Source: an uncultured Gammaproteobacteria bacterium
Lineage (GTDB): Bacteria; Patescibacteriota; Patescibacteriia; UBA2591; UBA6264
DNA length: 64,000 nucleotides
Direction of reading: 5' to 3'
Assembly: GCA_964596735.1 (NCBI GenBank)
Contig: CAZQVF010000004.1
Coordinates: 229 to 64,228, forward strand
The notes under the pieces were generated by a model. The model saw nothing but the letters and a program-made list of their open reading frames with translations, was not told the origin of the DNA and made no database searches. Position numbers and translations under genes: made by a program. Positions 4,006 to 47,127 of this stretch are shown here, in pieces (within the stretch, counting starts at the first letter, position 1; the number at the start of each line of letters is the position of its first letter).

Positions 4006-5818
4006 AATTAAAATGTTTAAACAGAGAATAAAAAGATATTTTAACAATTTGTCATGGCAGGAAAAAATAAAAACTATTTTTTCTCAACCTTTTCTTATCT
4101 TAGCGTTGCCAAAAACTTATTACCGATTGTATAAAAATATCTTGAGACCAAAGAATAAACAACTTGAATTTACTACTGGATTTTCAAAAACTACCGCGCT
4201 TATTTTGACTTGGTATTTACGGGTGAATGAATGTATTGAAAAATACGGTAGAAATGGATATGTATATGAAGACGGACTTGGGTTTTCTTTAAAAGAAAGA
4301 TTTTGGCTTAATCCCCTTGCTTTAAAAATTTACGGAAAATTAAAAATTCGCAATTTTATAATCATAACCACCGTTTTATTTATACTAAGTATTGCTATTA
4401 TTGCCTATTTTCAGTCTACCTCCTTGATATTTGCTATTATATTGACAATTTCAATTATCGGAAGCTCTTTATTTCTAATTTCATTTTTCAGATTCTCAAA
4501 GCCTGAAATATTAAGCTGGGCATTATTTCCATTTGCTTTTTATGCCTTCTTTACTGAGTCATATATTATTGCTGGTATAATTGCCATTTTAATCTCTTTT
4601 TTAAATTTTACAGTTACTTTATTAATTTTAGAAACTATTATACTTTATTCTTTTTTGTCAAAAAATTTATTTAATGGTTTTTTAATTTCTATTATTCCAA
4701 TATTAAAACTCTTGAACGACTTGTTGCCCCTTTTAAAAAGTTCACTAGTTAATAAATTATTTGAAGTCTTGGGCGGAAGAAAGGCAAAATCTAGAAAAGA
4801 TAAACTTTTAAAACTGCGATTAGAAGATGTATATTTGGAATTCTTTTATATTATTTTTATCTCTATTTTTATAATCCAGAAAGCGCCATTAGTCTATACT
4901 GTTCTTTTAATTAATCCTTTAATATTGTTTATTATTAATCAAAAAATATTCAGATATGGAGATAATAATACATTTTTTCGATTTTTCTTTACCATCGCAA
5001 CGATATGCATAATTTTACATCCAACTGTTTTATCTTTTATTTTTTACCTACTATTTATTTATCTATCCCCTCTTTCCTTGCTTGATGTTTCAGAAAAAAA
5101 TCTCTCTAATTTTCCTTATTTAAAACCGTATTCTTTGGAAAAAATAAACAAATTGGTTGAAAAATTTTTTAATCAAATCCCAAACCAATCTAGAATTGCC
5201 TTTGAACGAAATGACACCGAAAAGTCAATGTCCGGATTTAGAACAATTCTTTATTACCTAGAATATATACTCTTTAAAAGAGGAATTGAATTTCTGCCAA
5301 TGGAATGGTTACGCTTTACTCAGCTAGACTATTTTATGCAAGAATATATCAAAATCAACAATCAGAGTAATAAAAAAACAATTGAAGAAAAATTTCATGA
5401 ATTGGGCGTTCAATATATTATAGCTCACTCCCCTTCTTTTATAGAAAATCTTAAAAACTGGGGCTATAAAGAGATTAATACTCTAAATTATAAAGATATT
5501 AAAAAATACTTTTGGGGCCTCAAGGGTCTCCCTGAAAAAAATCTAGTTTTATTTTTATTACCCTTTGATGTTTTTTTAACTCATCCTCATTCAATTTTAA
5601 TAAGAAAGCCTAATCAAATGAAATTTGAAGCTCAGGCAAAAACAGAATACATTGTTAAATATACTTATCACCCAGATTGGCAAGCGTCTCAAAACGGTAA
5701 AAAAATACCCGTCTATGAATCTAAAGAAAAACTTTCATATCTTGCCTTAAAAACAGAAGACAAAGGAATGGTAGAGCTACAATTCAAAACCAATAAAGAC
5801 CGTACACCTTATGTATGA
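3947..5818 (+). CDS. Large polytopic membrane protein, copy A, with a soluble C-terminal domain resembling the C-termini of GT-C/YfhO-type membrane glycosyltransferases
   Basis: About 10 predicted hydrophobic helices. The soluble C-terminal ~230 aa end in YHPDWQASQNGKKIPVYESKEKLSYLALKTEDKGMVELQF, the Y-x-P-x-W-x-A-x-x-NGK-x-IPVY...L motif typical of GT-C/YfhO family C-termini. The probable true start is ATG 4013 (MFKQRIKRYF), which aligns with the start of paralog 7293..9092. Confidence 0.5.
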   Translation: MIKLQKISLVFIWLLKHINKIKMFKQRIKRYFNNLSWQEKIKTIFSQPFLILALPKTYYRLYKNILRPKNKQLEFTTGFSKTTALILTWYLRVNECIEKYGRNGYVYEDGLGFSLKERFWLNPLALKIYGKLKIRNFIIITTVLFILSIAIIAYFQSTSLIFAIILTISIIGSSLFLISFFRFSKPEILSWALFPFAFYAFFTESYIIAGIIAILISFLNFTVTLLILETIILYSFLSKNLFNGFLISIIPILKLLNDLLPLLKSSLVNKLFEVLGGRKAKSRKDKLLKLRLEDVYLEFFYIIFISIFIIQKAPLVYTVLLINPLILFIINQKIFRYGDNNTFFRFFFTIATICIILHPTVLSFIFYLLFIYLSPLSLLDVSEKNLSNFPYLKPYSLEKINKLVEKFFNQIPNQSRIAFERNDTEKSMSGFRTILYYLEYILFKRGIEFLPMEWLRFTQLDYFMQEYIKINNQSNKKTIEEKFHELGVQYIIAHSPSFIENLKNWGYKEINTLNYKDIKKYFWGLKGLPEKNLVLFLLPFDVFLTHPHSILIRKPNQMKFEAQAKTEYIVKYTYHPDWQASQNGKKIPVYESKEKLSYLALKTEDKGMVELQFKTNKDRTPYV

Positions 5819-7280
5819 AAAATTTAAACAATTAGGTAAAGACTCTACTTTATACGGATTAGGTAGCCTAGTTGGCAAAATAGTAGGTTTCTTGTTAATT
5901 CCTATTTATACCAGAATTTTTTCTCCATCTGATTATGGGATCATTGAAATGATTGGGGTTACCTGCTCAATTATCGGCATTATTCTTTCACTTGGATTAG
6001 ATTCTGCAATGTTTATGTGTTATTATCGTACCGATGATCAAAAAGAACGTCGTCTAATAACTTCTGTTAATTTCTTTTACCAGCTCTCCGCTATTATTGT
6101 TACCTGTATTTTAATAATTTTATTCAGTTCACAAATTTCGTTATTTCTTTTTAAAAATATTGTTTATTCAAAATATATTACTGTTGCTTTCTTGGGAATT
6201 CCTTTTGTTACTCTGATATCATTTTGTACCAACATTCTTAGACTAAATTTTCAGCCAATAAAATTTATCTATATCACTCTGGGAAACTTAATTATTAGTA
6301 CTTGCCTGAGTATATATTTCGTAGTGATCGCTCGTATCGGTATTATTGGTATTTACTATGCAATTTTAATCTCCGCAGTTATTCTTTCTATAATCTCTCT
6401 TTATTTAATACGTCAATATATTAGCCCTGTTTTTTCCTTTAAAAAGTTTAAAGAATTATTAAAAATAGGAATTCCTTTAGCTCCAGTCGCTGCTTTTATT
6501 TGGATTATGGACTTTTCAGATAGATACTTTTTGACCCATTTTACTAACCTTCATGAAATTGGTCTATATTCCATCGCTAATAAATTAGCCTTGGCCTTAG
6601 CCTTAGTCATTTTGGCTTTTCGTACTGCTAACGCTCCATTTCAATTTTCTGTTCAGAAAGACAAAGAAGCAAAAAAAATCTACGCTAAAACTTTAACCTA
6701 CTATATTATTGTTACCTTTTTTGTTGCTACTGGTCTTTCTATTTTTGCTAAAGAAGCTCTTATCATTCTTGCTCCTCCAATCTATCTTGCCGCCTACAGA
6801 GTAACCGGCCTACTTGCTTTTAGTATTGTTATCTATGGTCTTTATCATTTAATAGGAATTGGTCTAATTTTAAGTGATAAAAGAAAATATTTTACTATTT
6901 CCATAGGGATTGCCTGTATTTTAAACCTCTTCTTTAATAATGCCTTTATCCCTCTTTGGGGAATTATGGGCGCAGCTCTAGCCACACTTTTGTCTTATTC
7001 CATTGGTGCCATTCTTACTTATTATTATTCTCAAAAATATTATTTTATAGGATTTGAAATAAAAAAAATACTAAAGGTTACCTTGGTAACCCTTATTCTA
7101 ACTTTTGTTGGAACATTAATTATTTTCCCTTCATTACTTTTGAGTATAGTATTTAAAATTCTTCTCATGTTCTGTCTTTCAACTTTTCTCTATTCTCTTT
7201 TAGAACCAAAGGAAATACAAAAAATTAAATCAATTTTAAAAAACATTTTATATAAATATCTCCCTAATAATATGCGTTAA
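5811..7280 (+). CDS. Wzx-like polysaccharide/oligosaccharide flippase (MOP superfamily), copy A
   Basis: 489 aa with about 12-14 TM helices. The N-terminus MYEKFKQL...GSLVGKIVGFLLIPIYTRIFSPSDYGI is typical of Polysacc_synt (PF01943) flippases. Confidence 0.65.
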   Translation: MYEKFKQLGKDSTLYGLGSLVGKIVGFLLIPIYTRIFSPSDYGIIEMIGVTCSIIGIILSLGLDSAMFMCYYRTDDQKERRLITSVNFFYQLSAIIVTCILIILFSSQISLFLFKNIVYSKYITVAFLGIPFVTLISFCTNILRLNFQPIKFIYITLGNLIISTCLSIYFVVIARIGIIGIYYAILISAVILSIISLYLIRQYISPVFSFKKFKELLKIGIPLAPVAAFIWIMDFSDRYFLTHFTNLHEIGLYSIANKLALALALVILAFRTANAPFQFSVQKDKEAKKIYAKTLTYYIIVTFFVATGLSIFAKEALIILAPPIYLAAYRVTGLLAFSIVIYGLYHLIGIGLILSDKRKYFTISIGIACILNLFFNNAFIPLWGIMGAALATLLSYSIGAILTYYYSQKYYFIGFEIKKILKVTLVTLILTFVGTLIIFPSLLLSIVFKILLMFCLSTFLYSLLEPKEIQKIKSILKNILYKYLPNNMR

Positions 7281-7292
7281 TAACTAATTTCT

Positions 7293-9092
7293 GTGAGGTT
7301 AATAAAAAAATTCAAGAAATTTTATAACATGTTCTCTTTAGAGAATAAATTAGCCACTTTTTTTTCTATTCCTTTTTTAATTTTTATTCTTCCCAGAACT
7401 TATTGGAGGCTTTTTAAAAATGTGACTATACCAAGTAAAGAAGATCATTATATAACTGGTTTTTCCTCCCATATGGCCCTTATTCTTACTTGGTATCTCA
7501 GAATCGCTGATTGCGTTAAAAAATACGGCAGACACGGATATATTTATGAAGACGGCCTGGGTTCTTCTTTAAAAGAACGATTTTGGTCGAATTCATTTTC
7601 CTTAAAAATATATAATACTCTAAAGATTAAAAAATTCACTATTTTAACTGTTGTAATTCTCCTTTTTAATATTATTTTAATTGGTTTTCTACAAAATTCA
7701 CCCTGGCCTTTAATAATCGTCCTTATTTTGCTGATTATTGGTAGTCCTCTCTTTTTAATTTCTTTTTTCAGACTATCAAAACCAGAAATTTTAAGCTGGG
7801 CTTTTTTCCCTTTAGTTATATATTTCTTTTTAAACGGCTATTATTTAGTTTCAGGATTATTTTTGATCTTTATTGCTTTTTTAAATTTTACGACCACCCT
7901 TTTAACTATTGAAACTATTTTACTATGCTCTTTGGTTTCTAATTCTTTCATTAACGGAATTCTTATTTCAATCATCCCGCTAGTAATACTGGCAATCGAC
8001 TTTATTCCCTTTCTAAGGGGCTCTATTATAAATGGTGTGTTAGAAGCACTAGGAGGAAGAAGGGCAAAATCCCGCACTGACGAGTTTCTAAGAATCCGGC
8101 TTAATGACTTGTATTTGATTTTCTTTTATCTTATCTTTATTGTTACCTTTGTTATTAAAGATGCCTCTTTTATTCACGTGGTTCTTTTGATAAATCCTTT
8201 AATTTTATTTATCATTGACCGGAATATCTTTAGATTTGCTGATAATAACACGTTCTTTAGGTTCTTTTTTGCCCTGAGCACGGTTTTTGTTTTAATGAAT
8301 CCACACTTTTTAGTATTTCTTGCTTATATTATCTTTTTATACATGTCCCCTTTAAGCATGCTTGAAGTTTTTGAAAGTATTCCCAAAGAATATCCTCATC
8401 TTAAACCCCATTCTATTAAAAAATCAAAAGAATTTTTGGAAAAAACCTTCTCTCCGATTTCCAATCAATCAAGGATTGTATTTGAAATTAAGGACACTGA
8501 AAAATCTTTATCAGGATTTTCCACCCTTCTTTATTATTTTGAATATATTTTTATTAAAAGAGGTATTGAACTTTTGCCAATGGAATGGTTAAGAATGAAC
8601 CAAACTGACTATTTAATTAATGAATACGTAAAGATAAATAAAGAAAGCGATCAAGAAACAATTGAAGAAAAATTAAAAGAGCTTGGAGCACAATATTTAA
8701 TTGCTCATTCTAGTGAATTTATTAATAAATTGAAACAATGGGGATATCAAAATGTTATTATTATTCGTTGGCAAGACATTAAAAAAACTTTATGGGATTT
8801 CAAGGGAGTACTGATCCCGGAAAAAGATTTATTTATTTTTAAAGTACCTTTTTCCACCAGTTTTATTGAGCCAGAAACCAATTTAACACGTAAACCCAAT
8901 CAAATGGAATTTAACGCCCAAGCCAACAAAGAATATATTATCAAATATAATTACCATCCTTCTTGGCAAGTTTGGCAGAACAATAAAGAAATTCCTGTTT
9001 ACAAAGCAAAAGGAAATCTTTCCTATCTGGCATTATCTCCTAAAGAAAGTGGTCAGATGGTCCTAAAATTTAATACTCATTGGTATAAATAA
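7293..9092 (+). CDS. Large polytopic membrane protein, copy B (paralog of 3947..5818)
   Basis: Collinear similarity to copy A along its whole length (ILTWYLR, LKERFW, FFRLSKPEILSWA, LEALGGRRAKSR, KPNQMEFNAQA, YHPSWQVWQNNKEIPVY...LSYLAL). Confidence 0.5.
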   Translation: MRLIKKFKKFYNMFSLENKLATFFSIPFLIFILPRTYWRLFKNVTIPSKEDHYITGFSSHMALILTWYLRIADCVKKYGRHGYIYEDGLGSSLKERFWSNSFSLKIYNTLKIKKFTILTVVILLFNIILIGFLQNSPWPLIIVLILLIIGSPLFLISFFRLSKPEILSWAFFPLVIYFFLNGYYLVSGLFLIFIAFLNFTTTLLTIETILLCSLVSNSFINGILISIIPLVILAIDFIPFLRGSIINGVLEALGGRRAKSRTDEFLRIRLNDLYLIFFYLIFIVTFVIKDASFIHVVLLINPLILFIIDRNIFRFADNNTFFRFFFALSTVFVLMNPHFLVFLAYIIFLYMSPLSMLEVFESIPKEYPHLKPHSIKKSKEFLEKTFSPISNQSRIVFEIKDTEKSLSGFSTLLYYFEYIFIKRGIELLPMEWLRMNQTDYLINEYVKINKESDQETIEEKLKELGAQYLIAHSSEFINKLKQWGYQNVIIIRWQDIKKTLWDFKGVLIPEKDLFIFKVPFSTSFIEPETNLTRKPNQMEFNAQANKEYIIKYNYHPSWQVWQNNKEIPVYKAKGNLSYLALSPKESGQMVLKFNTHWYK

Positions 9093-38100: not shown

Positions 38101-38361
38101 TTCATATGTTAAATTTCTATTCTTACTTGTTGCCTCGTCAAACTTTGGCAAACCTAAAGAACAGTTCACAAAATGTAATTCAAAATTTTTCCCCACCGAG
38201 TCTTCAATTGGAGAAAATTCTTTTATTAATTCTTTAATCCCCTTTTTCAAAAACCAAGAATAAGAAGTCTTCTGTATTTGGGTTAGATCAGGCAAGGGCA
38301 AATTGGAGCGGGATTCTGAAAAATATTTACGTTCTTCAGACATAAAATATTTTGAGGGCAA
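35161..38361 (-). CDS. rpoB: DNA-directed RNA polymerase subunit beta
   Basis: Full-length RpoB similarity. The start is a TTG at 38361; the first ATG is at 38343. Confidence 0.97.
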   Translation of the reverse strand: MPSKYFMSEERKYFSESRSNLPLPDLTQIQKTSYSWFLKKGIKELIKEFSPIEDSVGKNFELHFVNCSLGLPKFDEATSKNRNLTYEAPLTAKVRLINKKTGKRVAQEIYFSDIPLMTERGTFIINGIERVIVQQLIRSPGVFFSRESIKGRFFYGAKIIPDRGAWLEFETDTKGVIWVRIDRQRKTPVTSLLRVFGYGTDKEILDLFTPKKARLDKKSKKPKIDVSALDYIKATMEKDPSASEEEGLIEVYRKIRPGDLATVDNAKSLIYAMFFLPNRYDLSKVGRYKINQRLSLDKNIEKRVLRPEDLKAMISEIIKLNISQGNPDDIDHLANRRIRAVGELVQNRMRVGMLRLQRITKDRMSVIEGKATPGQLVNIRPITGVIKEFFMSSQLSQFMDQTNILSELSHKRRLTVAGPGGLSRERAGFEVRDVHRTYYGKICPIATPEGPNVGLVSHLSCYARINEYGFIETPYQKVVKGRITNQIVYLNAHEEEQYIIAPFLTEVDKKGRITEKKVEARIYGRPGFCKVLEVEFTDVAANQIISIGTSLIPFLEHDDGVRALMGTNMQRQAVPLIKPESPIVGTGVEGKIAQDSGHLVIAKESGKVTEVDANHIRITGRSGKTKTYYLDKYLRSNYDTCVNQQPSVVKNQTVKVGDILARGSSIDNGELALGQNILGAFMVWEGGNYEDAILISSRLVHQDKFTSLHIDEHTIDIRETKFGPEMTTRDIPNVSEEKLKDLDEEGIIRVGAEVKSGDILVGKITPKGEAELTAEEKLLRAIFGEKAQDVRDSSLYLEHGEHGKVIGIKIFSRERGDKLAPGVVKSIQVLVADLRKIQVGDKMAGRHGNKGVVSRVVSQEDMPYLKDGTPIDIILNPLGVVSRMNLGQILEIHMGLAAQKLGYKTATPPLNGIKEETIKQELVRAGFSSSGKMILYDGRTGKAFKNPVTVGYTYFMKLNHLVEDKIHQRSIGPYSLITQQPLGGKAQFGGQRFGEMEVWALEGYGAAYTLQEMLTIKSDDVLGRTKAYESIIKGLPVRETYIPESFSVLVRELKGLGLNVEMIKTR

Positions 38362-38573
38362 AAAAACCTCAGGAATGTGCTTCCTAAAAGGTTTGTTTAT
38401 TTAATTTTCTAAATCTTTTGTATTATAAAAAAATAAGATAAAAAAACGACTAAATAAATAATATCAAAAAACTCTTATTTAGTCAACTCTATCTATTGCA
38501 TTATTTTAACGCTCTATTAAGCCAAAATAGAGTTTATCCACAAATCATCCACAGGTCTATAATTGAAATGTTT

Positions 38574-38650
38574 TTTAATTTCAAGGTTCCCGCCTAAATT
38601 TCGAAGAAACTTTGGCGGGGTTCTCGCCGAAGGCGAAGTTCTTATTCTTA
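38574..38650 (-). repeat. GC-clamped hairpin repeat, copy A (identical 50-nt core at 38577..38626)
   Basis: The core aatttcaaggttCCCGCCtaaatttcgaagaaactttGGCGGGgttctcg is identical to 42444..42493. A CGCCGAAGGCG mini-hairpin tail follows and ends in the Mur-ligase TAA. Confidence 0.7.
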
Positions 38651-39967
38651 TCCCTCATCTAAAACCTCTCTAACAATTGCTCTATCGTCCCAAGCAATCT
38701 TTTGATTTTTGGGTCCCATAATCCATGGTTCACAACCTTTGCCAGTAATGATTACTACATCCCCTGCTCGAGCCAGATTTATAGCTTTTCTAATGGCTTT
38801 TTTTCTATCAAGAATCTTAATCGCCTTTTTATTTTTTATTCCTGAAATTATTTGATCAATAATTTGCTCAGGATCTTCATTATAAGAATCTTCATTAGTA
38901 ATAATTATTTCGTCTCCATATTTTTCAGCAATCTGTCCCATAATTGGCCTTTTCCATTTATCTCTTCCTCCACCAGCTGAACCTAAAACACAAATTAATC
39001 TGGGCTTCCGCCGAAGGCGGATCCGCTTCTGGCGGAGATTCTTTAAGGTTTGATAAACCTTTTCCAAGGAATCGGGAATATGAGCATAGTCAACAATAAC
39101 AGTAAATGGCTGCTTATCAACCACTTCCATGCGTCCGGGTATTTGCTCAACTTTTGTTAAAGCTTTTTGACAAATATTTAAATCAATGCTCTGAGATAAA
39201 GCCACACAAATAGCGCTTAAAGCATTTATCACATTAAATTTTCCTAGTAGATTGATTTTAAAATTAACATTATTAACTATAAATTCTGAACCATCTGACA
39301 TAGTTCTGATATTTTCCGCGCTGACAACCTTAATATCTTTCAAAATATTTCCTTCGCAAGTATAACCATATTGCTGATCAACTTTAAATTTTAAAAAATA
39401 CTCTTTGTTTTCATCATCTAAATTAACAATGCTAGCCTTATTAATTATTTTCTTATTAATCTTTTTTCTTTTACATTTACTTAAATGTTGAAAAAACTTT
39501 TGTTTAGCCTTCCTATATTTTTCAAAACTACCATGATATTCAATGTGTTCTTTTGATAAATTAGTAAAAACACCAATATCATAGTTAATCCCTAAATGTC
39601 TATATTGCTTAACCCCCTGCGAAGTTGTTTCGATCACAGCATACTGACAACCAGCTTTATACATTTGTTTTAATAATTTTTGTAAAGCAAAACGACCAAG
39701 CATGGTCATTTTATGTTTATTAATTTTTTCCTCTTTACCAATTTTAAAATTAAAAGTAGTGGTTAAACCTACTTTAAATCCAGCTTGTTCTAAAATTTGG
39801 CCGATTAAATTAACCACTGTGGATTTAGCCGAAGTACCGGTCACACCAATAACAATCATTTTATTACTGGGATGGCCATAAATAAAGGCAGCTAAGTGAG
39901 CTAAAGCCCAGTGATAGAATAATAGAACTGGCTGAGGAACTATTTTTTTTAACAATCTTTTTATCAT
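38648..39967 (-). CDS. Mur-ligase-family amide ligase, MurE-like but lacking the N-terminal UDP-binding domain
   Basis: AAFIYGHPSNKMIVIGVTGTSAKST aligns with the MurE region immediately before and including the P-loop, but only about 40 residues precede it. The middle domain has DIGVFTNLSKEHIEYHGSFEKY. The C-terminal domain has VLGSAGGGRD, ITNEDSYNEDPE, DRKKAI, and GDVVIITGKGCE. The start overlaps the upstream gene's stop (ATGA). Confidence 0.7.
   Translation of the reverse strand: MIKRLLKKIVPQPVLLFYHWALAHLAAFIYGHPSNKMIVIGVTGTSAKSTVVNLIGQILEQAGFKVGLTTTFNFKIGKEEKINKHKMTMLGRFALQKLLKQMYKAGCQYAVIETTSQGVKQYRHLGINYDIGVFTNLSKEHIEYHGSFEKYRKAKQKFFQHLSKCKRKKINKKIINKASIVNLDDENKEYFLKFKVDQQYGYTCEGNILKDIKVVSAENIRTMSDGSEFIVNNVNFKINLLGKFNVINALSAICVALSQSIDLNICQKALTKVEQIPGRMEVVDKQPFTVIVDYAHIPDSLEKVYQTLKNLRQKRIRLRRKPRLICVLGSAGGGRDKWKRPIMGQIAEKYGDEIIITNEDSYNEDPEQIIDQIISGIKNKKAIKILDRKKAIRKAINLARAGDVVIITGKGCEPWIMGPKNQKIAWDDRAIVREVLDEG
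39001..39045. repeat. GC-rich double mini-hairpin embedded in-frame in the Mur-ligase coding sequence
   Basis: cttCCGCCgaaGGCGGaTCCGCttctgGCGGAgattc. It shares the CGCCGAAGGCG unit with repeat copy A's tail and encodes the extra basic segment RLRRKPRL. Confidence 0.5.
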
Positions 39968-41523
39968 TTATTTATTTTTTTAATAAGCCTAACTATTCCT
40001 TTATTTGCATCTACCTCTACTAAATCACCGTTCCTCAGAACCCTTGTAGCTGTTTTTGTACCAACAATGCAAGGTATTTTAAGTTCGCGAGAAATTATTG
40101 CTGCATGACAGGCTAAACCACCTTCATCTGTAATAATAGCTGCAGATTTATTTACCAATGGCATAAAATCCGGCCTGGTCATAGCAGTAACCAAAATCTC
40201 TCCCTGACTCATTTTAACATTACTACGAGGGTTAAGTACAACCTTAATTTTTCCACTAACTACACCCCCTGAGGCCGTTAAGCCCTTGATTACCTTGATT
40301 CTCTGATGACTTCTCGGTTTCGCCTGAACTAATGATAATAAAAATGGATTAATATTTTTATTTAGCCACCAGATTCTTCCATTTTTATTTCTAAACTGAA
40401 CAACTAAATCAAATCGTTTCTTAATAGAATTCAGATCTATTCTTTTGTTCTGCAAAAAATCTATGAATTCGCTAGGTAACATATGATATAAAATCTTCCT
40501 AGAAATATTTTTTTCTTTAGCTGCTTTTCGAATAATCACATCTTGCCAATATGTACCAATTAGACCCGCTTTTTTTCTGCGGTCCTGCCACCCTGCCATA
40601 AAAGATATTAATTCTAATATTTTAATTTCTTGCTTGGTAAATATGTTAGCTCTTTTGATTTTTAGCTTTTCTTTCTTAATATTTCTTTTATAATCCTTGA
40701 TCTCCTCTAAGTCTTTTTTTATTTCTAACATTCCTTTAAACTCTTTGGCTGTTTTGATCTCTTTTAAGATATCTTCCTCTGTTAATGCTTTTGCTCCGAG
40801 ATAATTCGTATACAGCCAATAATATTTCTTTAGGTAGCTCCTGGCAGTACTTTCTTTATTCTTTGTAAAGGCTATTTCAAAAAGATTTTTTCTGGCGACA
40901 GAAAGAAAAGAAGACTCTTTAGGAGAAGACAATATGTTTATTTCACTATGAAGCTTTGGATATTTTTTTATCAACTTTTTAGAGATATATTCACTATAAT
41001 TTAAAAAATACTCCGGAATAATACCATAAGCCCACTGGGTTGAATGGGCATTATAAATATTAATATAGTCCAGGGTAATGTCATTTATCCCCCCTTTCTC
41101 TATCTTCTTAACCAATTCATAAAAGCGTCTTTCTTTGTCTTCCCACCGCCTGAACTCTCTATTAATAAACTTTGTGTTCTTAATCAACTCTTCTGATCTC
41201 TTAATAAGCAAAGATTTATTATAAACCCAAACAAGATTAGAGCCTTTAAAAATCGTCAAAATAAAGTCAAAATTTAACTTTATCTTTTTAGCATGTGGAG
41301 AATGTGTTAAAGGATTATCAGCAGAAAAAAACAAATGAATATTGCCCGGGAAATTAAAAACGCCAATTGACTCTAATCTCTGAAGCTTGTTTATAATCCT
41401 TTTTTCTATCTTTTGAGACATAGAAAGATAACGCTTTATCAAAGCTATTTTAATATAAAAATTTATAACGTCGTAATTGGCCTTGATTGAGTAATATAAA
41501 TCTTTCCTTTGGCAAAGGCCCAT
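39964..41523 (-). CDS. PEP-utilising-enzyme family protein, paralog 4: a ~400-aa N-terminal putative substrate domain plus a C-terminal phosphohistidine swivel domain
   Basis: The C-terminus GEILVTAMTRPDFMPLVNKSAAIITDEGGLACHAAIISRELKIPCIVGTKTATRVLRNGDLVEVDANKGIV is PF00391. The first ~20 residues of the tracked ORF overlap the upstream ATP-grasp extension in another frame, so the likely start is ATG 41421 (MSQKIEKR). Confidence 0.6.
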   Translation of the reverse strand: MGLCQRKDLYYSIKANYDVINFYIKIALIKRYLSMSQKIEKRIINKLQRLESIGVFNFPGNIHLFFSADNPLTHSPHAKKIKLNFDFILTIFKGSNLVWVYNKSLLIKRSEELIKNTKFINREFRRWEDKERRFYELVKKIEKGGINDITLDYINIYNAHSTQWAYGIIPEYFLNYSEYISKKLIKKYPKLHSEINILSSPKESSFLSVARKNLFEIAFTKNKESTARSYLKKYYWLYTNYLGAKALTEEDILKEIKTAKEFKGMLEIKKDLEEIKDYKRNIKKEKLKIKRANIFTKQEIKILELISFMAGWQDRRKKAGLIGTYWQDVIIRKAAKEKNISRKILYHMLPSEFIDFLQNKRIDLNSIKKRFDLVVQFRNKNGRIWWLNKNINPFLLSLVQAKPRSHQRIKVIKGLTASGGVVSGKIKVVLNPRSNVKMSQGEILVTAMTRPDFMPLVNKSAAIITDEGGLACHAAIISRELKIPCIVGTKTATRVLRNGDLVEVDANKGIVRLIKKINK

Positions 41524-41642
41524 TCAATATCTTGGGGAGTTTTATAATGTTTCTCAATATTTCTAACTATTTTACTTAATTTAATAATCTCAGGATTTTT
41601 TAATTTTTGTTTAGCTTGTTTTGCTTTAGGAACAGCGATATT
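41463..41642 (-). other. In-frame 59-codon continuation of the PPDK_N ATP-grasp gene beyond its TAA
   Basis: Same frame as 41643..42422. It translates to NIAVPKAKQAKQKLKNPEIIKLSKIVRNIEKHYKTPQDIEWAFAKGKIYITQSRPITTL, the conserved end of the PEP synthase / PPDK nucleotide-binding domain (IEKHYG.P.DIEWA...IVQARP). Confidence 0.7.
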
Positions 41643-42422
41643 TTAATTCTTATTCTTTGCCCATTTAATCATTTTCTCCTGTTCATTAATATTAATATCT
41701 AAAATGGTTAAAGAGTCTTTTTCAACCACATAAGCATCAGGGGTAATCATTCCCCCGACAATGGCTTCTCCTAAACCATAACCGGCTTCAATAATCATTT
41801 GATTTTTATCTTTAGTAATAGGGTGAACAGTAAAACAAATTCCTGAAACTTCTGATTGAATCATTTTTTGCACGGCTACAGCCACAGAAACACTTTTTCT
41901 TCGCATTTTTCTCTCTATCCGATAAAACAAAGCGCGAGGAGTATAAAGAGACGCCCAACATTTTTTAACATTTTTTAAAACCATTTTTTCCGTGGTATTT
42001 AAATAAGTTTCCAATTCCCCTGCCCAAGAATCAATCTTGGAATCTTCTGCTGTGGCTGAACTTCTTACGGCGACATATTTTACCTTTAACTTTTTAAATT
42101 CTTTTAATATTTCTTGTTGCATTGATTTAGGCATTTTTTTATTCATAATCAAATCTCTAAGAATTTCTGAACTTTCTTCCACTGATTCTATATCTTTTAA
42201 ATTGATTTTGTTTAACCTTGCCCTGATTTCTACATTAATATCCGTTGCTTTTAAATATTCTTCAAAAGCCAAAGCGGTAACGACAAAACCTTCTGGCACA
42301 TGAAAACCAGCTTTTGTCATTTCTCCCAGAGAGGCTCCCTTCCCTCCAACAGAATTAACATCCTTTTTTGAAATTTGATTAAAATGTTTTATAAAATCAC
42401 TCATATTGTTAAAATTTAGCAA
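41643..42422 (-). CDS. Stand-alone PEP-synthase / pyruvate-phosphate-dikinase N-terminal ATP-grasp (PPDK_N) domain protein, interrupted by an in-frame TAA
   Basis: DVNSVGGKGASLGEMTKAGFHVPEGFVVT ... VAVRSSATAEDS ... GLGEAIVGGMITPD is PF01326. The tracked start is a TTG at 42422; a good ATG (MSDFIKHFNQ) is at 42404. Confidence 0.75.
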   Translation of the reverse strand: MLNFNNMSDFIKHFNQISKKDVNSVGGKGASLGEMTKAGFHVPEGFVVTALAFEEYLKATDINVEIRARLNKINLKDIESVEESSEILRDLIMNKKMPKSMQQEILKEFKKLKVKYVAVRSSATAEDSKIDSWAGELETYLNTTEKMVLKNVKKCWASLYTPRALFYRIERKMRRKSVSVAVAVQKMIQSEVSGICFTVHPITKDKNQMIIEAGYGLGEAIVGGMITPDAYVVEKDSLTILDININEQEKMIKWAKNKN

Positions 42423-42440
42423 TAAAATATTATTTACATA

Positions 42441-42519
42441 TTAAATTTCAAGGTTCCCGCCTAAATTTCGAAGAAACTTTGGCGGGGTTCTCGACGAACG
42501 AAGTGAGGAGGGATTCTTA
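42441..42519 (-). repeat. GC-clamped hairpin repeat, copy B (identical 50-nt core at 42444..42493)
   Basis: Identical to 38577..38626. Its tail ends in the TAA of paralog 3. Confidence 0.7.
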
Positions 42520-44067
42520 TTTTTTAATAATATTAATTATACCATGTGTGGCATCAACCTCAATAATGCTCCCATCTTTTAAAACTTGAGTGGCGATCTT
42601 AGTGCCAATCACGCAAGGAATGTCTAATTCCCGACTAACAATGGCAGCATGGCAGGTTAAGCCACCAGTATCAGTAACAACAGCGGCGGCTTTTTTCATA
42701 GCAGGCACTAAGGAAGGATTAGTAATTTGAGAAACTAAAATATCACCTTTTTTCATTTTTTGCATCTCCTCTGGAATAGTAATAATCCTGACAGTGCCTC
42801 GAGCTTTACCTGGACAACCACACTCTCCACTAAGTTCACGGGTGTCTTTGAGTTTTGGCAGTGAATTTAAAATCGGCTTCATAATCTTCTGGGCCGCCTG
42901 ACCAGTATAAAGTTTAAAATCTCCGTCTTCAGCTCGATAAATTGAATATCCAAGCATTTCGTTAGCTTGCTTAACAGGAAATTTCCTCTTCTTTAAAATT
43001 TCCACTAAATCGCCATCGTGAATAATGTAAAGCTGCTTTAAAGAAATATTAAATTCTTTAGCTGCTTGTTTAAGCAGTGGTTTAATAAAACAATATGACT
43101 GATACAAGGCATCCATTCTAACCACTTTGGCATGTATTATACCGGTCATCAACTCAAATAACTTTTGCTGATCATCATCTATGTTAAGCTTGTTAATCCA
43201 ATCCTTTTTAACTGATAACAATTCATTCTGTTGTTTTTTCATCTGTCCAGCTTTTTCAGCTAAACCTTTTTTATTTAACATCCGTTTAAACAAATCAACA
43301 AAGTAATCTATCTCCCAAGCTGGACCTATCCAACTATAAGGCAACCAATAATAAATTTTGTAATGATTAACAAGCTCTTGCCAACATTCTTTAAAATCTT
43401 TTCTTAAAATCTCTTTAACTTCTTCTAAACCCTCTTTGGATTTCATGCCCTTTTTCAGCTTTGTATTCTTTTGATACTTAGCAACCAATGAGAGAAAATC
43501 GTGTTCTTCTCTCTGATTAAAACTCCATTCTTTGGGAGTAGTTAGTAATCGAAAAATCTCTTGAGCCCTGGGGTGATTGGCCTTTCTCCTAGAATCAAGA
43601 TATTCAGTTAAATAAGAAGATAATAAAGTATTATTAAGCTCCAAAAGATTAGGCACCATACCTAAACACCATAAATTATAATGTAATCTATGCCACTTGG
43701 CGAAAGTGGTTACTATTTTATTCCATGAACTTGAGGCAAAATTAATTCCCTTAATTCTCTTATTAAAAGAAAAAAGGTCTGTGGCGGCTGCCTCAATTGC
43801 TCTGAGAGCTCGAGCTAATAACTTTGGTTCTTTCTTAATTTGATTAAAATATCTTTGGCTAATCTTATTCCATTCACTTTGTGAAATATAATATCGCTGA
43901 ACACCATTTTTATACTCCCAAACTTGATTTTCACAGGCATAACCAACATTTTTCTTAAGTTCAGTATAAAGACCATAGATATATGGACTATGAAACCAAT
44001 ATAAATCATACCATTCAGCAAAACATATCCAATCATTCTTTATTCCTTTTATTTCTTTTGACGCCAT
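42517..44067 (-). CDS. PEP-utilising-enzyme family protein, paralog 3 (N-terminal domain plus phosphohistidine swivel domain)
   Basis: The C-terminus GECGCPGKARGTVRIITIPEEMQKMKKGDILVSQITNPSLVPAMKKAAAVVTDTGGLTCHAAIVSRELDIPCVIGTK. The N-terminal domain shares W-x-C-x-AE and KxYYWLPYSWIGPA motifs with paralog 2. Confidence 0.65.
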   Translation of the reverse strand: MASKEIKGIKNDWICFAEWYDLYWFHSPYIYGLYTELKKNVGYACENQVWEYKNGVQRYYISQSEWNKISQRYFNQIKKEPKLLARALRAIEAAATDLFSFNKRIKGINFASSSWNKIVTTFAKWHRLHYNLWCLGMVPNLLELNNTLLSSYLTEYLDSRRKANHPRAQEIFRLLTTPKEWSFNQREEHDFLSLVAKYQKNTKLKKGMKSKEGLEEVKEILRKDFKECWQELVNHYKIYYWLPYSWIGPAWEIDYFVDLFKRMLNKKGLAEKAGQMKKQQNELLSVKKDWINKLNIDDDQQKLFELMTGIIHAKVVRMDALYQSYCFIKPLLKQAAKEFNISLKQLYIIHDGDLVEILKKRKFPVKQANEMLGYSIYRAEDGDFKLYTGQAAQKIMKPILNSLPKLKDTRELSGECGCPGKARGTVRIITIPEEMQKMKKGDILVSQITNPSLVPAMKKAAAVVTDTGGLTCHAAIVSRELDIPCVIGTKIATQVLKDGSIIEVDATHGIINIIKK

Positions 44068-44076
44068 AAACCTATT

Positions 44077-45642
44077 CTATTTCTTTTTTAATATCTTAAC
44101 CACCCCCTTAGTCGCATCAACCTCAACTAAATCCCCATCTTTAAAAATTTTAGTAACAATTTTAGTTCCGACGATACAAGGAATGCCTAGTTCCCTGCTA
44201 ACAATAGCGGCATGACAAGACAATCCACCAGCATTAGTAACAATGGCCGCTGCATTTTTCATAGCTGGAACTAGGCTTGGATAAGTTGTTTCAGAAATCA
44301 AAATATCACCTTTTTTCATTTTCACTATATCTTTAGGATACTCAACAATCTTAATCTGCCCCTTGGCTTTACCCGGTGAAGCACAGGTTCCTTTTAGTTC
44401 ATCAACTTGCCTTTGAATAGCTAATTTTTCTTTAGGCAGTTTGTCAAAAAAATCTTGAGCCTTTTTACCAGTTAAAATCGTGGTTTTTTTAGCTGTAGTA
44501 TAAAAAATAGCGCATTTCATCCGAGCTTTAAGAACTTCTATTGTAGGAATCTTGCCATCCTTTAAGGCTTTTATTATTTCTCCATAGGTCATGGCTCTAA
44601 CATTATGGCAAGTTATTTTAAACTTTTTAGCAATTTGCCTAAAAAAGGGTTGATAACAATACATGCCGTGATAAAGAGACCCCTTTCTAAACTCCTTAAC
44701 AAAAACAATTTCTTGACATATCTTAATAAGTTTAAGTTGATAAGAATTAAATCTTAGTTTTTTAAATAAATCTCTTTGTTTTTGTTTTGTCTTTCTTTCT
44801 TTAGCTAAGATCTCTTTTAAAAGCTCTGTTGGCAAGACATTTCCCTTAATTAAATTTTGCCAGCGTTCTAAAAAATATTTAAAAGGATAAGCTGGTCCTT
44901 TATACTCATAAGGCAACCAGGTCCATTCTTTAAAATGAGCTTGCATAATTTCAAACATTTTTAAATCTACCTCCCTGAGCTTTTTGGGTAAAAGGTTTAA
45001 TTTAGTCTTTTTAAAAACCTGTTTAATTTTAGGTTGAGAATATATTTGCTGAGCAACTTTTAAAAATTCTTTTTCTTCTTTGATAACAAAACTTTTTTTA
45101 ATTGGAGTAGAAAGGACACTAAAAACATTAGCTAATTCTAATTTTAATTTTAATTTTCTTTTTTTAATCTGCTTTTCAATCATTTTTGTAACCGACCTAC
45201 TTATTCTTTCTTTGTCTGCATCAACGTGCCAGGAAACAGCTGAGCCAACTCCATGAGATAGTTCTTGCCATTTTAAAACCCGTTGATAAGCATTAAGCAT
45301 TTGTACTGAAGTCATTTTAGAAAAAGGCAAATTAAAAAATTTATTAGATTCTTTAATAAACTTGTTTGAATAAACCTCAGCTTTATCTAACATTTTTAAG
45401 GCCCAATCAGGATTGGAAATCATTTTTTTAGCTAAAAAATCTGCCGCTGCATCAAATTCAGATCTTTTATAATATAAAGCAGAAAAATCTCCTTTAAAAT
45501 AATTAAAACAAACCTTTATTTTTGATCCTAATCCTAGTCTAGGCCAACCTGTAAAGAAAAAACGAAGTGGCAGGCTAATTATAAATATTGTGTTTCTTGT
45601 AATTTCTGCAGAACAAAACCACAAATCTTTATTTTTTTTCAT
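44077..45642 (-). CDS. PEP-utilising-enzyme family protein, paralog 2
   Basis: The C-terminus GTCASPGKAKGQIKIVEYPKDIVKMKKGDILISETTYPSLVPAMKNAAAIVTNAGGLSCHAAIVSRELGIPCIVGTK. Confidence 0.65.
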   Translation of the reverse strand: MKKNKDLWFCSAEITRNTIFIISLPLRFFFTGWPRLGLGSKIKVCFNYFKGDFSALYYKRSEFDAAADFLAKKMISNPDWALKMLDKAEVYSNKFIKESNKFFNLPFSKMTSVQMLNAYQRVLKWQELSHGVGSAVSWHVDADKERISRSVTKMIEKQIKKRKLKLKLELANVFSVLSTPIKKSFVIKEEKEFLKVAQQIYSQPKIKQVFKKTKLNLLPKKLREVDLKMFEIMQAHFKEWTWLPYEYKGPAYPFKYFLERWQNLIKGNVLPTELLKEILAKERKTKQKQRDLFKKLRFNSYQLKLIKICQEIVFVKEFRKGSLYHGMYCYQPFFRQIAKKFKITCHNVRAMTYGEIIKALKDGKIPTIEVLKARMKCAIFYTTAKKTTILTGKKAQDFFDKLPKEKLAIQRQVDELKGTCASPGKAKGQIKIVEYPKDIVKMKKGDILISETTYPSLVPAMKNAAAIVTNAGGLSCHAAIVSRELGIPCIVGTKIVTKIFKDGDLVEVDATKGVVKILKKK

Positions 45643-45651
45643 AAATTTTAA

Positions 45652-47127
45652 CTAATTCTTATTTTTAATAATTCTAACCACTCCTTTATTTGCGTCTACT
45701 TTGACCAAATCCCCATCTTTCAATGCCCTAGTGGCAATTTTAGTGCCCACAACGCAAGGAATTTTTAATTCACGAGAGATAATGGCCGCATGAGAAAGTA
45801 ATCCGCCCTCATCAGTAATTATAGCTGATGCCTTTTCCATAGCCGGGACAAATTTAGGATTGGTCTTTGGGCTGACTAATATTTCTCCTCTTTTCATTTT
45901 AGCCACATCACAGTAGCTTTCTAAAACTCTGACCCTTGCTTTAACTATGCCTGAAGAAGCAGCCACTCCTTTTAGTTGATCAACTTGTTTTATCTGAGAC
46001 TCTGTCTTTCTTTTTTCTGCTTCTTCCCATTTTTCTAACTCTTTTCCCGAGTAAATTTTTATTTCTGTTCCCTGCCAAAGAATTCCATATTTTTTTACTC
46101 TTTGCTTTAATTTAACTTTTGTTCGTGAAGAGATTACGCCCTTTTTAAAAAATTCATCAATTTCTTCAAAGGCCATCTCTGCCAGCATCTTGTGACTTAT
46201 TTTCATTCTTTTAGCAAGCTCTGAATGAAGCCCCTTAAGATAATGGCTAATTAAACAACCAGCTTCATCTAAATAATTAAGGCAATGACCCCACTGTTTC
46301 AAGGTTTTTATAATAAGTTGGGCCTTTTTAGACAAATTAAGCTCCTGAATAATTTTTTGCGTCAATTCTTTATTCTTTTCTTGAATTTTGATTTTTCTAA
46401 TTTCCTCTTTTAACTCCTTAGGCAAAATCCTCTTGATTCTTTTCTCTATCTCTTTCTCTGTATAAGGTTGATAATAGTAAAAATAGTAGTTGAGAAACCC
46501 GTATTTTTTAATATGGTCCTTGATAAATCTTTGAATTCTTTTATTTTTAAAAGAAAGTTTTTTCTCTTTTACTAACTTAGCTAGTTTTAAGAGCTGAAGC
46601 CTTTCTTGTCTAATCAAAGTCGGCCTATCAAGGCCAGTTAAAATTCCAATAATCTCATTAAATCTTTTTTCGTTTTTTAGTTTTTTATTAATTTCGGCAA
46701 TCAAAACATCGGGCAAATATCGATCTATTATATAATATGTGTAATCAGGAACAAGCCATTTCTTTTTCAAATCAATAAGCTTTCTGTAGATCTTTTCAAT
46801 TCCTTGAAGCTCCCATCTCGAAAAATCAACGTCTTTATATCTCTCACAAAATTGGACAATTTCTTTATTCCTTTTTTCAAATTCTTTTCCTAATTTTAAA
46901 AGATAACCAGGACTTTTATTTTCTTTACTTTTGATTAGTTTTAAATAATCATCCCATTCTTCTTTGTTAAAATAAGTCGCGCCAAGAACCCGACGATAAT
47001 AATGAATAGTAAAATTAGCTTTTAAAAACTTTTTTAAAAGCCCTTCCTTATAGGCATAAGGAAAAATAGATATTAAAAGTAAAGGAACCCGGCCAGTTTT
47101 AGTTACTTGAACCCAATTAACAGGCAT
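45652..47127 (-). CDS. PEP-utilising-enzyme family protein, paralog 1
   Basis: The C-terminus GVAASSGIVKARVRVLESYCDVAKMKRGEILVSPKTNPKFVPAMEKASAIITDEGGLLSHAAIISRELKIPCVVGTK. Confidence 0.65.
   Translation of the reverse strand: MPVNWVQVTKTGRVPLLLISIFPYAYKEGLLKKFLKANFTIHYYRRVLGATYFNKEEWDDYLKLIKSKENKSPGYLLKLGKEFEKRNKEIVQFCERYKDVDFSRWELQGIEKIYRKLIDLKKKWLVPDYTYYIIDRYLPDVLIAEINKKLKNEKRFNEIIGILTGLDRPTLIRQERLQLLKLAKLVKEKKLSFKNKRIQRFIKDHIKKYGFLNYYFYYYQPYTEKEIEKRIKRILPKELKEEIRKIKIQEKNKELTQKIIQELNLSKKAQLIIKTLKQWGHCLNYLDEAGCLISHYLKGLHSELAKRMKISHKMLAEMAFEEIDEFFKKGVISSRTKVKLKQRVKKYGILWQGTEIKIYSGKELEKWEEAEKRKTESQIKQVDQLKGVAASSGIVKARVRVLESYCDVAKMKRGEILVSPKTNPKFVPAMEKASAIITDEGGLLSHAAIISRELKIPCVVGTKIATRALKDGDLVKVDANKGVVRIIKNKN

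Follow-up and report, generated by a model that had tools for sequence, protein, structure and literature searches.

The in-frame TAA codon that interrupts an ATP-grasp gene of an uncultivated member of the Patescibacteria (CPR) is, with a probability of roughly 0.87, a very recent loss-of-function point mutation that is still segregating in a nearly clonal natural population. It is a single C-to-T transition, CAA to TAA (Gln254 to stop), in a genome of 33% G+C. The gene lies in a 64,000-nucleotide stretch of DNA (hereafter, the window). One sample with the host population (SAMN10231904) could be traced to an oxygen-deficient marine water column, and the study labels hint at the Cariaco Basin as its possible origin. 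The initial annotation had proposed three options for this codon, i.e., a very recent pseudogene, stop-codon readthrough or recoding, and a sequencing or assembly error, the first of which proved to be essentially right: a single CAA-to-TAA SNP separates the interrupted gene from its intact counterpart, and the site is still polymorphic.

The nonsense codon and its reading frame

The ATP-grasp (PPDK_N) gene is read from the minus strand, where its codons 1-253 (41646..42404, beginning with an ATG at 42404-42402; assigned by Pfam PF01326 and PDB matches) run into TAA at 41645..41643, in the context ...AAG AAT AAG AAT TAA AAT ATC GCT.... Downstream, the 59 codons of the former C-terminus (41466..41642, minus strand; NIAVPK...QSRPITTL), recognised by alignment to intact 313-aa orthologues, continue in the same frame to a second TAA (41465..41463, minus strand). 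The latter is the original stop of the 313-aa gene, at which both the intact allele described below and the close orthologues, all 313 aa long and ending in ...QSRPITTL, terminate. The arrangement reported in the initial annotation, an in-frame TAA inside a PPDK_N gene with 59 sense codons and a second TAA behind it, is confirmed. Judged from base composition, the chance of 59 open codons after a stop is P ~0.007; this value, together with the homology, indicates that the frame has not remained open by chance.

In the TAA allele, translation ends at residue 253, and the 59-codon tail is left untranslated. The tail, which had been described as lacking a start codon, indeed contains no in-frame ATG, GTG, or TTG. 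This bears on the notion that the gene is split by nature, with a 253-aa and a 59-aa piece synthesised independently and then joining to form a working ATP-grasp. Such an arrangement is hardly conceivable: the intact downstream frame speaks for it and nothing further does, whereas the second piece has no codon from which to start, no orthologue is split at codon 254, and, in a structure model, the break falls inside a beta-strand.

Two alleles in one population

The exact 253-aa product was found on 13 public contigs. Ten of these loci were fetched and are 100% identical over 942 nt, TAA included. They represent five samples assembled by JGI (3300009311, 3300009314, 3300009320, 3300009405, and 3300009431), four in ENA (SAMN10231903/4 and SAMN11854493/4), and one Logan run (SRR9166041), and thus three pipelines. 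Listing the members of the 90% cluster that contains the truncated product yielded an intact allele (P0241; 313 aa, four JGI contigs), which carries Gln254 and is identical to the window gene in its other 312 residues. The variable base is 41645, which is T on the gene strand in the window and C in the intact allele. Over 16.9 kb, this base is the sole coding difference between the window and a CAA contig of the same strain (L154); a further difference, in the copy number of an intergenic repeat, also occurs among the TAA contigs. A second contig of the same strain (L155) likewise carries CAA. The samples with CAA are JGI 3300009127 and 3300009326. An uninterrupted ORF across the PF01326 domain, absent in the window (TAA at codon 254), is thus present in the allele of L154 and L155. 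The initial annotation had reasoned that a sense codon at 41643..41645 would mean an intact gene; CAA is indeed found there in some samples and TAA in others, i.e., both alleles exist.

These data leave almost no room for a sequencing or assembly error, according to which the codon is CAA everywhere and the T an artefact. It is true that CAA is seen in some samples; however, ten contigs from three pipelines carry TAA in otherwise identical sequence, the site is outside any homopolymer, and each allele is a consistent consensus in its own samples. This option of the initial annotation can be regarded as excluded by the ten identical contigs.

TAA (41643..41645, minus strand) is the derived state, and CAA the ancestral one, as judged from the orthologues and from the two same-strain contigs. 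Gln occupies the codon-254 column in 21 close relatives, the codon itself being CAA in four of them (L011, L012, L015, and L018), and the in-frame stop is seen in no orthologue. The comparison with orthologues that the initial annotation had called for thus returned intact relatives of 313 aa with Gln at codon 254. Independently broken ATP-grasp genes do occur in approximately 3 of 55 relatives, with the breaks at other positions. An exact-pattern scan of a metagenome contig collection, with the pattern verified on the fetched loci, found neither allele, and a protein-based scan of the same collection returned more distant relatives only; given the null pattern scan, the collection simply does not contain the relevant samples.

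The age of the mutation follows from the comparison of the two alleles. Because there is no other coding difference from the CAA strain over approximately 17 kb, TAA must be a very young, still-segregating nonsense SNP. Moreover, dN/dS after the TAA is 0.07-0.10, which is equal to that of the upstream part and to that obtained in intact-versus-intact comparisons. An old, established pseudogene, decaying or fixed, is ruled out by these values together with the identity to the intact allele and the polymorphism; since the site is polymorphic and shows neither decay nor accompanying coding differences, TAA is best described as a nascent loss-of-function allele. In this respect, the case resembles ordinary bacterial nonsense pseudogenes and polymorphisms, in which one transition introduces an early stop into a gene that is intact in all other respects and the alleles coexist. 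It differs from them in that it has been caught unusually early, the coding sequence over 17 kb being the same in all other positions, and in that the lineage is uncultivated and known through metagenomes alone.

Readthrough, recoding, and selection

Programmed readthrough or recoding would mean that the TAA is decoded as sense and the full-length 313-aa ATP-grasp is still made, perhaps at a low and regulated level. The 59 downstream codons are perfectly intact (dN/dS ~0.1), as are four adjoining partner genes, and the TAA allele is common across samples, all of which would fit. However, the youth of the mutation, evident from coding sequence that over 17 kb otherwise equals that of the CAA allele, fully explains this intactness; the stop is present in no orthologue, and the same strain has a CAA allele. 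Furthermore, TAA is the main ordinary stop in the window, where it ends 37 of 53 long ORFs, including this gene at its own natural end (TGA and TAG end eight each); an alternative genetic code was rejected on the same stop-codon usage. Both bacterial release factors read UAA, which therefore is the least leaky bacterial stop. RNA around the site folds no more stably than shuffled sequence (z = +0.75), no Rfam match was found, and no suppressor tRNA is encoded within the 64-kb window, the sole tRNA there being Arg-CCG. Thus, the readthrough option of the initial annotation lacks support and is very unlikely, and nothing argues for a novel instance of recoding. Basal readthrough of the TAA may nevertheless occur, as far as can be judged from sequence. 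The four partner genes are all intact, which is expected with a young mutation and equally if some activity persists.

One observation counts against a recent loss-of-function mutation: the TAA allele is found on more contigs (13 of 17, in three sequencing projects) than the CAA allele (4), although numbers of contigs do not equal allele frequencies, and the same reads may have been assembled more than once among the ENA and Logan entries. It follows that TAA is not strongly counter-selected. This raises the possibility of a selected loss or an on/off polymorphism, in which the knock-out is kept at high frequency and is advantageous under some conditions, e.g., by saving energy or by avoiding phosphorylation of a compound, with a one-step TAA-to-CAA reversion restoring the gene. 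The prevalence of TAA across several projects fits such a scenario, as do the broken ATP-grasp genes of approximately 3 in 55 relatives, a 1-nt deletion in paralogue 3 in one sample, and the state of the locus in sister lineages, where it is in flux, with partner genes frameshifted or truncated and a toxin-antitoxin pair inserted. However, the same findings are accounted for by drift or hitch-hiking, the population being nearly clonal, and the site has no repeat or slippage mechanism that would favour switching. A selected loss is very unlikely.

What the truncation removes

When read through the stop as 253 + X + 59 residues, the product matches Pfam PPDK_N (PF01326) without a gap at the stop: its residues 17-312 cover profile positions 2-311 of 328 in a single stretch (E 9.8e-98, 327.9 bits vs. 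a cut-off of 27). Solved structures of PEP synthases and rifampin phosphotransferase align with it over the full length of their ATP-grasp domain (E 1e-62 to 1e-68), which bears out the earlier view that the 59 codons are the C-terminal end of the ATP-grasp domain. K22 (GGKG), E294 (DIEW), and Q306 and R308 (QSRP) do not vary among 52 homologues, and the window sequence has them as well; in the TAA allele, the last three are positioned after the stop. E294 aligns with Glu297 of RPH-Lm, a Mg ligand (PMC4844700).

In a model of P0001, which is 96% identical to the window protein (pLDDT 89.7), the lost part consists of the last portion of strand 252-257 together with helix 270-287 and the terminal beta-hairpin (291-309), where D292-I-E294-W and Q306-S-R308-P are located. 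The truncation thus removes 13 of 65 family-invariant residues, including the Mg-ligand Glu and the QSRP motif. Since a strand end, a helix, and the last hairpin of the C-terminal lobe are missing, the 253-aa product is expected to be inactive. This expectation is based on the removal of whole structural elements and not on the Glu alone, because the E297A substitution by itself did not abolish the activity of RPH-Lm (PMC4844700).

A two-component dikinase with four partners

From its domain content and neighbours, the ATP-grasp gene is identified as a putative HpeI/PpsB-like subunit of a two-component small-molecule dikinase, with four paralogues as HpeH-like partners. The 313-aa gene contains PF01326 alone and ends where the ATP-grasp domain in rifampin phosphotransferase (RPH) does, and in the adjoining partners a swivel domain with a His motif follows an RPH-like substrate-binding domain. 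All four lie on the minus strand and flank the single ATP-grasp gene: paralogue 1 (491 aa, 45652..47127; GGLLSHAAIISR) and paralogue 2 (521 aa, 44077..45642; GGLSCHAAIVSR), both assigned by PF00391 and family alignment; paralogue 3 (516 aa, 42517..44067; GGLTCHAAIVSR, with His473 as the histidine expected to be phosphorylated), assigned by PF00391 and a structure model; and paralogue 4 (485 aa, 39964..41421; GGLACHAAIISR), in which PF00391 covers residues 405-475. They are mutually 24-37% identical, and each has PF00391 and the motif GGxx[S/C]HAA. The suspicion that the automatic start of paralogue 4 at 41523 is spurious proved justified: the 485-aa form from 41421 fits the N-termini of the family, and the ENA gene calls also give 485 aa. 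Paralogue 4 is missing from the corresponding position in relatives. The model of paralogue 3 (pLDDT 94.4) has rifampin phosphotransferase 5fbt as its best PDB match (~470 columns, E 8e-14) and matches it over both the substrate-binding and the swivel domains.

By analogy with HpeI, PpsB, and CreI, the ATP-grasp subunit would bind ATP and pyrophosphorylate a swivel-domain histidine of a partner; the partner would in turn phosphorylate a small substrate that occupies its rifampin-phosphotransferase-like domain. The TAA allele would leave the four partners without a phosphate donor, unless an ATP-grasp gene is located elsewhere, outside the window; within the 64-kb window there is no second PPDK_N copy.

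HpeHI, CreHI, and PpsAB (phenylphosphate synthase; PMC12167813) likewise consist of a stand-alone ATP-grasp subunit of ~313-340 aa and an adjoining subunit with an RPH-like domain and a C-terminal His swivel bearing GGxx[S/C]HAA. A model of HpeH matches RPH across the substrate-binding and swivel domains (PMC12167813), as does the paralogue modelled here. In contrast to these systems, one ATP-grasp gene is accompanied here by four divergent partners, which are shorter (485-521 aa) than HpeH (~71 kDa); the host belongs to the Patescibacteria; the neighbours are ScpAB, MurE, and rpoB and not aromatic-catabolism genes; and the ATP-grasp gene carries a nonsense codon in the window allele. Because the immediate neighbours are housekeeping genes, the gene context suggests no substrate.

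The ATP-grasp domain in RPH-Lm (PDB 5FBS/5FBT/5FBU, 5HV1-6; PMC4844700) aligns end to end with the protein described here (E ~1e-62), 5HV6 being the ATP-grasp domain alone and ending at the same QSRPITT, and the fold of the partner matches the RIF-binding and swivel domains. However, RPH unites in a single chain of 867 aa the domains that are divided between separate proteins here, and identity in the substrate domain is only ~16%, with nothing pointing to a rifamycin substrate. PEP synthase and pyruvate phosphate dikinase share the ATP-grasp (PF01326) and phospho-histidine swivel (PF00391) domains (best matches 8a8e and 9dae); in contrast, the TIM-barrel domain that binds PEP/pyruvate is present in none of the five proteins. 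The NCBIfam scores fall well short of the equivalog cut-offs (341 vs. 598 bits and 327 vs. 740 bits), so the proteins are not PEP synthases; this identity (pyruvate, water dikinase) was rejected on both grounds. None of the five proteins has a PADLOC match to anti-phage defence. Nothing specific was found in the literature on such dikinase arrays in Patescibacteria.

Implications

For annotation, the gene should be recorded as pseudo, being the nonsense allele of a gene for an ATP-grasp protein of 313 aa, and not as a 253-aa protein, and the start of paralogue 4 should be placed at 41421. The TAA, although real, is nothing out of the ordinary, and its biological value is modest. On a bolder reading, Patescibacteria populations may switch a hub ATP-grasp subunit, which would power a whole set of divergent small-molecule dikinase partners, off and on by a one-base change, TAA or CAA being an ecologically selected state; in a weaker variant, residual readthrough may maintain a low level of the enzyme. 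The bolder reading is unlikely, but if it were true, the two codons would represent the on/off state of a multi-substrate phosphorylation system in CPR bacteria. What the allele does offer is a natural knock-out of the sole ATP-grasp subunit serving four HpeH-like partners in an uncultivated, ultra-small member of the Patescibacteria. The array is common in CPR genomes, and following TAA and CAA from sample to sample might give a clue to the conditions under which it is needed.

Premature stop codon in the ATP-grasp gene

On the minus strand, the stand-alone PPDK_N/ATP-grasp gene opens with an ATG at 42404 and terminates after 253 aa at a TAA (41645..41643; ...AAG AAT AAG AAT TAA AAT ATC GCT...), beyond which the same frame runs through 59 sense codons (NIAVPKAKQAKQKLKNPEIIKLSKIVRNIEKHYKTPQDIEWAFAKGKIYITQSRPITTL) to a second TAA at 41465..41463. 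The 313-residue read-through matches PPDK_N (Pfam PF01326) without interruption (E 9.8e-98), its residues 17-312 covering positions 2-311 of the 328-position profile, and aligns end to end with the ATP-grasp domains of PEP synthase structures 8a8e, 9dae and 2ols and of the Listeria rifampin phosphotransferase; 5hv6, the rifampin phosphotransferase ATP-grasp domain alone, has the same terminus, QSRPITT. From base composition, the probability of 59 open codons following a stop is approx. 0.007. Taken together, these data confirm that, as the initial annotation proposed, an in-frame TAA precedes a conserved ATP-grasp C-terminus and that this is not a chance arrangement. The extension was also said to lack a start codon, and indeed it contains no in-frame ATG, GTG or TTG. 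This speaks against a split gene whose 253-aa and 59-aa pieces are made separately, as does the position of the break inside a β-strand.

It had been left undecided whether the stop reflects a very recent pseudogene, readthrough or recoding, or a sequencing or assembly error. The last of these is excluded. Public data contain the exact 253-aa product on 13 contigs. The ten compared here represent five samples from JGI, four from ENA (two studies) and a single Logan run, and each of them matches the window at 100% identity across the gene and its extension (942 nt), including the TAA. It should be noted that some ENA/Logan entries may derive from identical reads assembled again, although at least three sequencing projects are involved. 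The flanks are 99.7-100% identical to the window, and the TAA contigs differ by two SNPs, an N-gap from scaffolding (L004), deletion of one nucleotide from paralogue 3 (L003), and intergenic-repeat copy number.

Ancestral state and polymorphism

The nearest relatives with an intact gene (from 96% identity downwards) all have a length of exactly 313 aa and show Gln at the stop column ("NKNQNI"), encoded by CAA in the loci L011, L012, L015 and L018; the TAA therefore originated in a single C-to-T transition. Moreover, there is no sign of relaxed constraint downstream of the TAA: in comparisons of the window with these relatives, dN/dS of the 59 codons is 0.07-0.10, equal to the values upstream (0.07-0.13) and for intact-versus-intact pairs (0.05-0.12).

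The intact allele also exists beside the truncated one. P0241, the second member of the 90%-identity cluster of the 253-aa product, occurs on four contigs from JGI, the longest reaching 310 kb; it is 313 aa long, carries Gln254 and is identical to the window reading at all other 312 residues. Its loci L154 (JGI 3300009127, a 200-kb contig) and L155 (JGI 3300009326) share the gene order of the window, paralogue 4 included. Across 16.9 kb, the only differences between L154 and the window are base 41645 (C in L154, T in the window, gene strand) and a tandem duplication of a 93-nt intergenic element, which is also duplicated in the TAA contigs L001 and L005. One JGI series holds both alleles (TAA in Ga0117906, Ga0117908, Ga0117909 and Ga0117914; CAA in Ga0117911). 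Thus, the TAA is a nonsense polymorphism of a single nucleotide that is extremely young and segregates within one population, which is nearly clonal; the pseudogene suggested initially is a CAA/TAA SNP that is still polymorphic. The TAA is present on 13 of 17 contigs, which might suggest a selected loss or an on/off polymorphism; however, drift or hitch-hiking in a clonal population explains this proportion equally well.

Programmed readthrough or recoding, the remaining proposal, finds no support. TAA ends 37 of the 53 long ORFs in the window (TGA and TAG eight each; G+C 33%) and is therefore its normal, dominant terminator, with which the ancestral frame of the ATP-grasp gene also ends. The window contains no suppressor tRNA, its sole tRNA being Arg-CCG; the 121 nt around the TAA fold no better than shuffled sequence (z = +0.75), and no Rfam family matches 38300-42600, even at E <= 1. 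The ancestral Gln codon and the CAA allele in the same population likewise argue against recoding, and the downstream frame is intact because the nonsense mutation is young.

Identity of the predicted dikinase system

Relatives derive from Patescibacteria/CPR MAGs (Buchananbacteria, Falkowbacteria, Kerfeldbacteria, and Parcubacteria), and one source sample is a marine oxygen-deficient water column. Many reference MAGs with this clearly Patescibacteria-type locus (L019, L020, L026, and others) are titled 'uncultured Gammaproteobacteria bacterium', Rhizobium or Bathyarchaeia, which look like placeholder or wrong taxonomy, unfit for inferring the host.

The gene order is ScpA, ScpB, three paralogues (45652-47127, 44077-45642 and 42517-44067), PPDK_N, paralogue 4 (39964-41421; all minus strand), MurE, and rpoB. 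All four paralogues, which share 24-37% identity, carry a C-terminal PEP-utilizers swivel domain (PF00391, E ~1e-25) and the catalytic motif GGxx[S/C]HAA[IV][IV]SR. [quoted passage not shown] The same pattern has been published for HpeH, which in the two-component dikinase HpeHI is paired with a stand-alone ATP-grasp protein, HpeI; CreHI and PpsAB are described likewise (PMC12167813). By this analogy, the locus is predicted to work like a two-component small-molecule dikinase with one 'I' and four 'H' subunits. In HpeHI-type enzymes, the ATP-grasp subunit presents ATP, whose β-phosphate is attacked by the partner histidine; the γ-phosphate is hydrolysed, and the swivel domain takes the phosphate to the substrate site (PMC12167813). 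PEP synthase identity was rejected for all five proteins, given the lack of a TIM-barrel domain and NCBIfam scores far below cut-offs, and no PADLOC defence model matches the locus.

Arrays of one ATP-grasp gene and several swivel genes are typical of the family: of the 50 loci from relatives that span 12 kb or more, 43 contain one or more adjacent swivel genes and 32 contain at least two, with a maximum of six. This one-to-many arrangement (39964-47127 in the window) is common in Patescibacteria and DPANN relatives, and no description of it was found in the literature searched. Four partner-subunit homologues (P0146, P0147, P0154, and P0158; 863-877 aa), for which PF00391 is the sole annotation, may represent two partner genes fused in tandem, or a partner fused to a domain that is not recognised.

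Predicted consequence of the truncation

In the model of P0001, a 96%-identical intact homologue (pLDDT 89.7), residue 254 lies within strand 252-257, and the TAA removes the rest of this strand, helix 270-287 and the final hairpin (291-298/301-309). With them go 13 of the 65 columns invariant among 52 homologues (K267, I283, E284, P290, D292, E294, W295, Q306, R308, P309, I310, T311, and L313). E294 aligns with the Mg2+ ligand Glu297 of RPH-Lm, in which E297A alone did not inactivate RPH (PMC4844700). Since the ATP site of HpeI lies between two lobes (PMC12167813), loss of about half of the C-terminal lobe should abolish folding or activity of the ATP-grasp subunit. No second PPDK_N copy is present in the 64-kb window, so the four partners in TAA cells are probably without a phosphate donor.

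Instability of the locus

The dikinase locus is evolutionarily unstable in this clade. With ATP-grasp intact, L012 has frameshifted or truncated partner genes (274 + 249 aa and 276 aa; region 5493-7888), and L015 retains a remnant of 346 aa and a fragment of 277 aa, while its array has gained a PhdYeFM antitoxin-like gene by insertion (region 5316-7815). Furthermore, the ATP-grasp gene is independently broken in 3 of 55 reference-genome relatives at positions other than that of the window, by a stop (L047), truncation (L069) or frameshifts (L073). The 1-nt deletion in L003 (ENA SAMN10231903) falls in a GGG run close to the 3' terminus of paralogue 3 (equivalent to window 42571) and alters the last ~18 codons (P0121, 509 aa vs. 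516 aa); it could reflect either a genuine second lesion of the system, present in one sample, or a mistake in the assembly.

Paralogue 4 separates PPDK_N from MurE in the window strain only; it is absent from L011, L012 and L015, and MurE directly follows PPDK_N in relatives of 90-96% identity. It is a partner gene that was inserted or duplicated specifically in this lineage, and its stop overlaps the MurE start (39964-39967). The 519-aa ORF that starts at 41523 runs, in a different frame, over the ancestral ATP-grasp C-terminus. The 485-aa form from the ATG at 41421 is the one called in ENA, and in an alignment with the other paralogues and 55 homologues it begins at column 1; therefore, the first 34 residues of the longer ORF are not real, and the 41523 start is spurious, as had been suspected.

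A 49-nt element (GAGAACCCCGCCAAAGTTTCTTCGAAATTTAGGCGGGAACCTTGAAATT) occurs in two exact copies (38577-38625 and 42444-42492, minus strand), none being expected by chance. The copies are direct repeats bracketing the PPDK_N-paralogue 4-MurE segment, and the element folds into a long hairpin (-21.7 kcal/mol, z = -2.8). No Rfam family matches it, it does not occur in relatives when up to 3 mismatches are allowed, and several short contigs are broken there. The 93-nt tandem duplication concerns the copy upstream of rpoB in the JGI contigs L001, L005 and L154, whereas the window and ENA contigs have one copy; this difference may reflect genuine variation or a collapse during assembly.

A recent nonsense allele is in keeping with a system that is accessory and often eroded. 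The feature has an ordinary explanation: a loss-of-function SNP has newly arisen in the ATP-grasp subunit of an enzyme system whose kind is already known, and the main value of the TAA allele lies in annotation and in its use as a natural knock-out marker.
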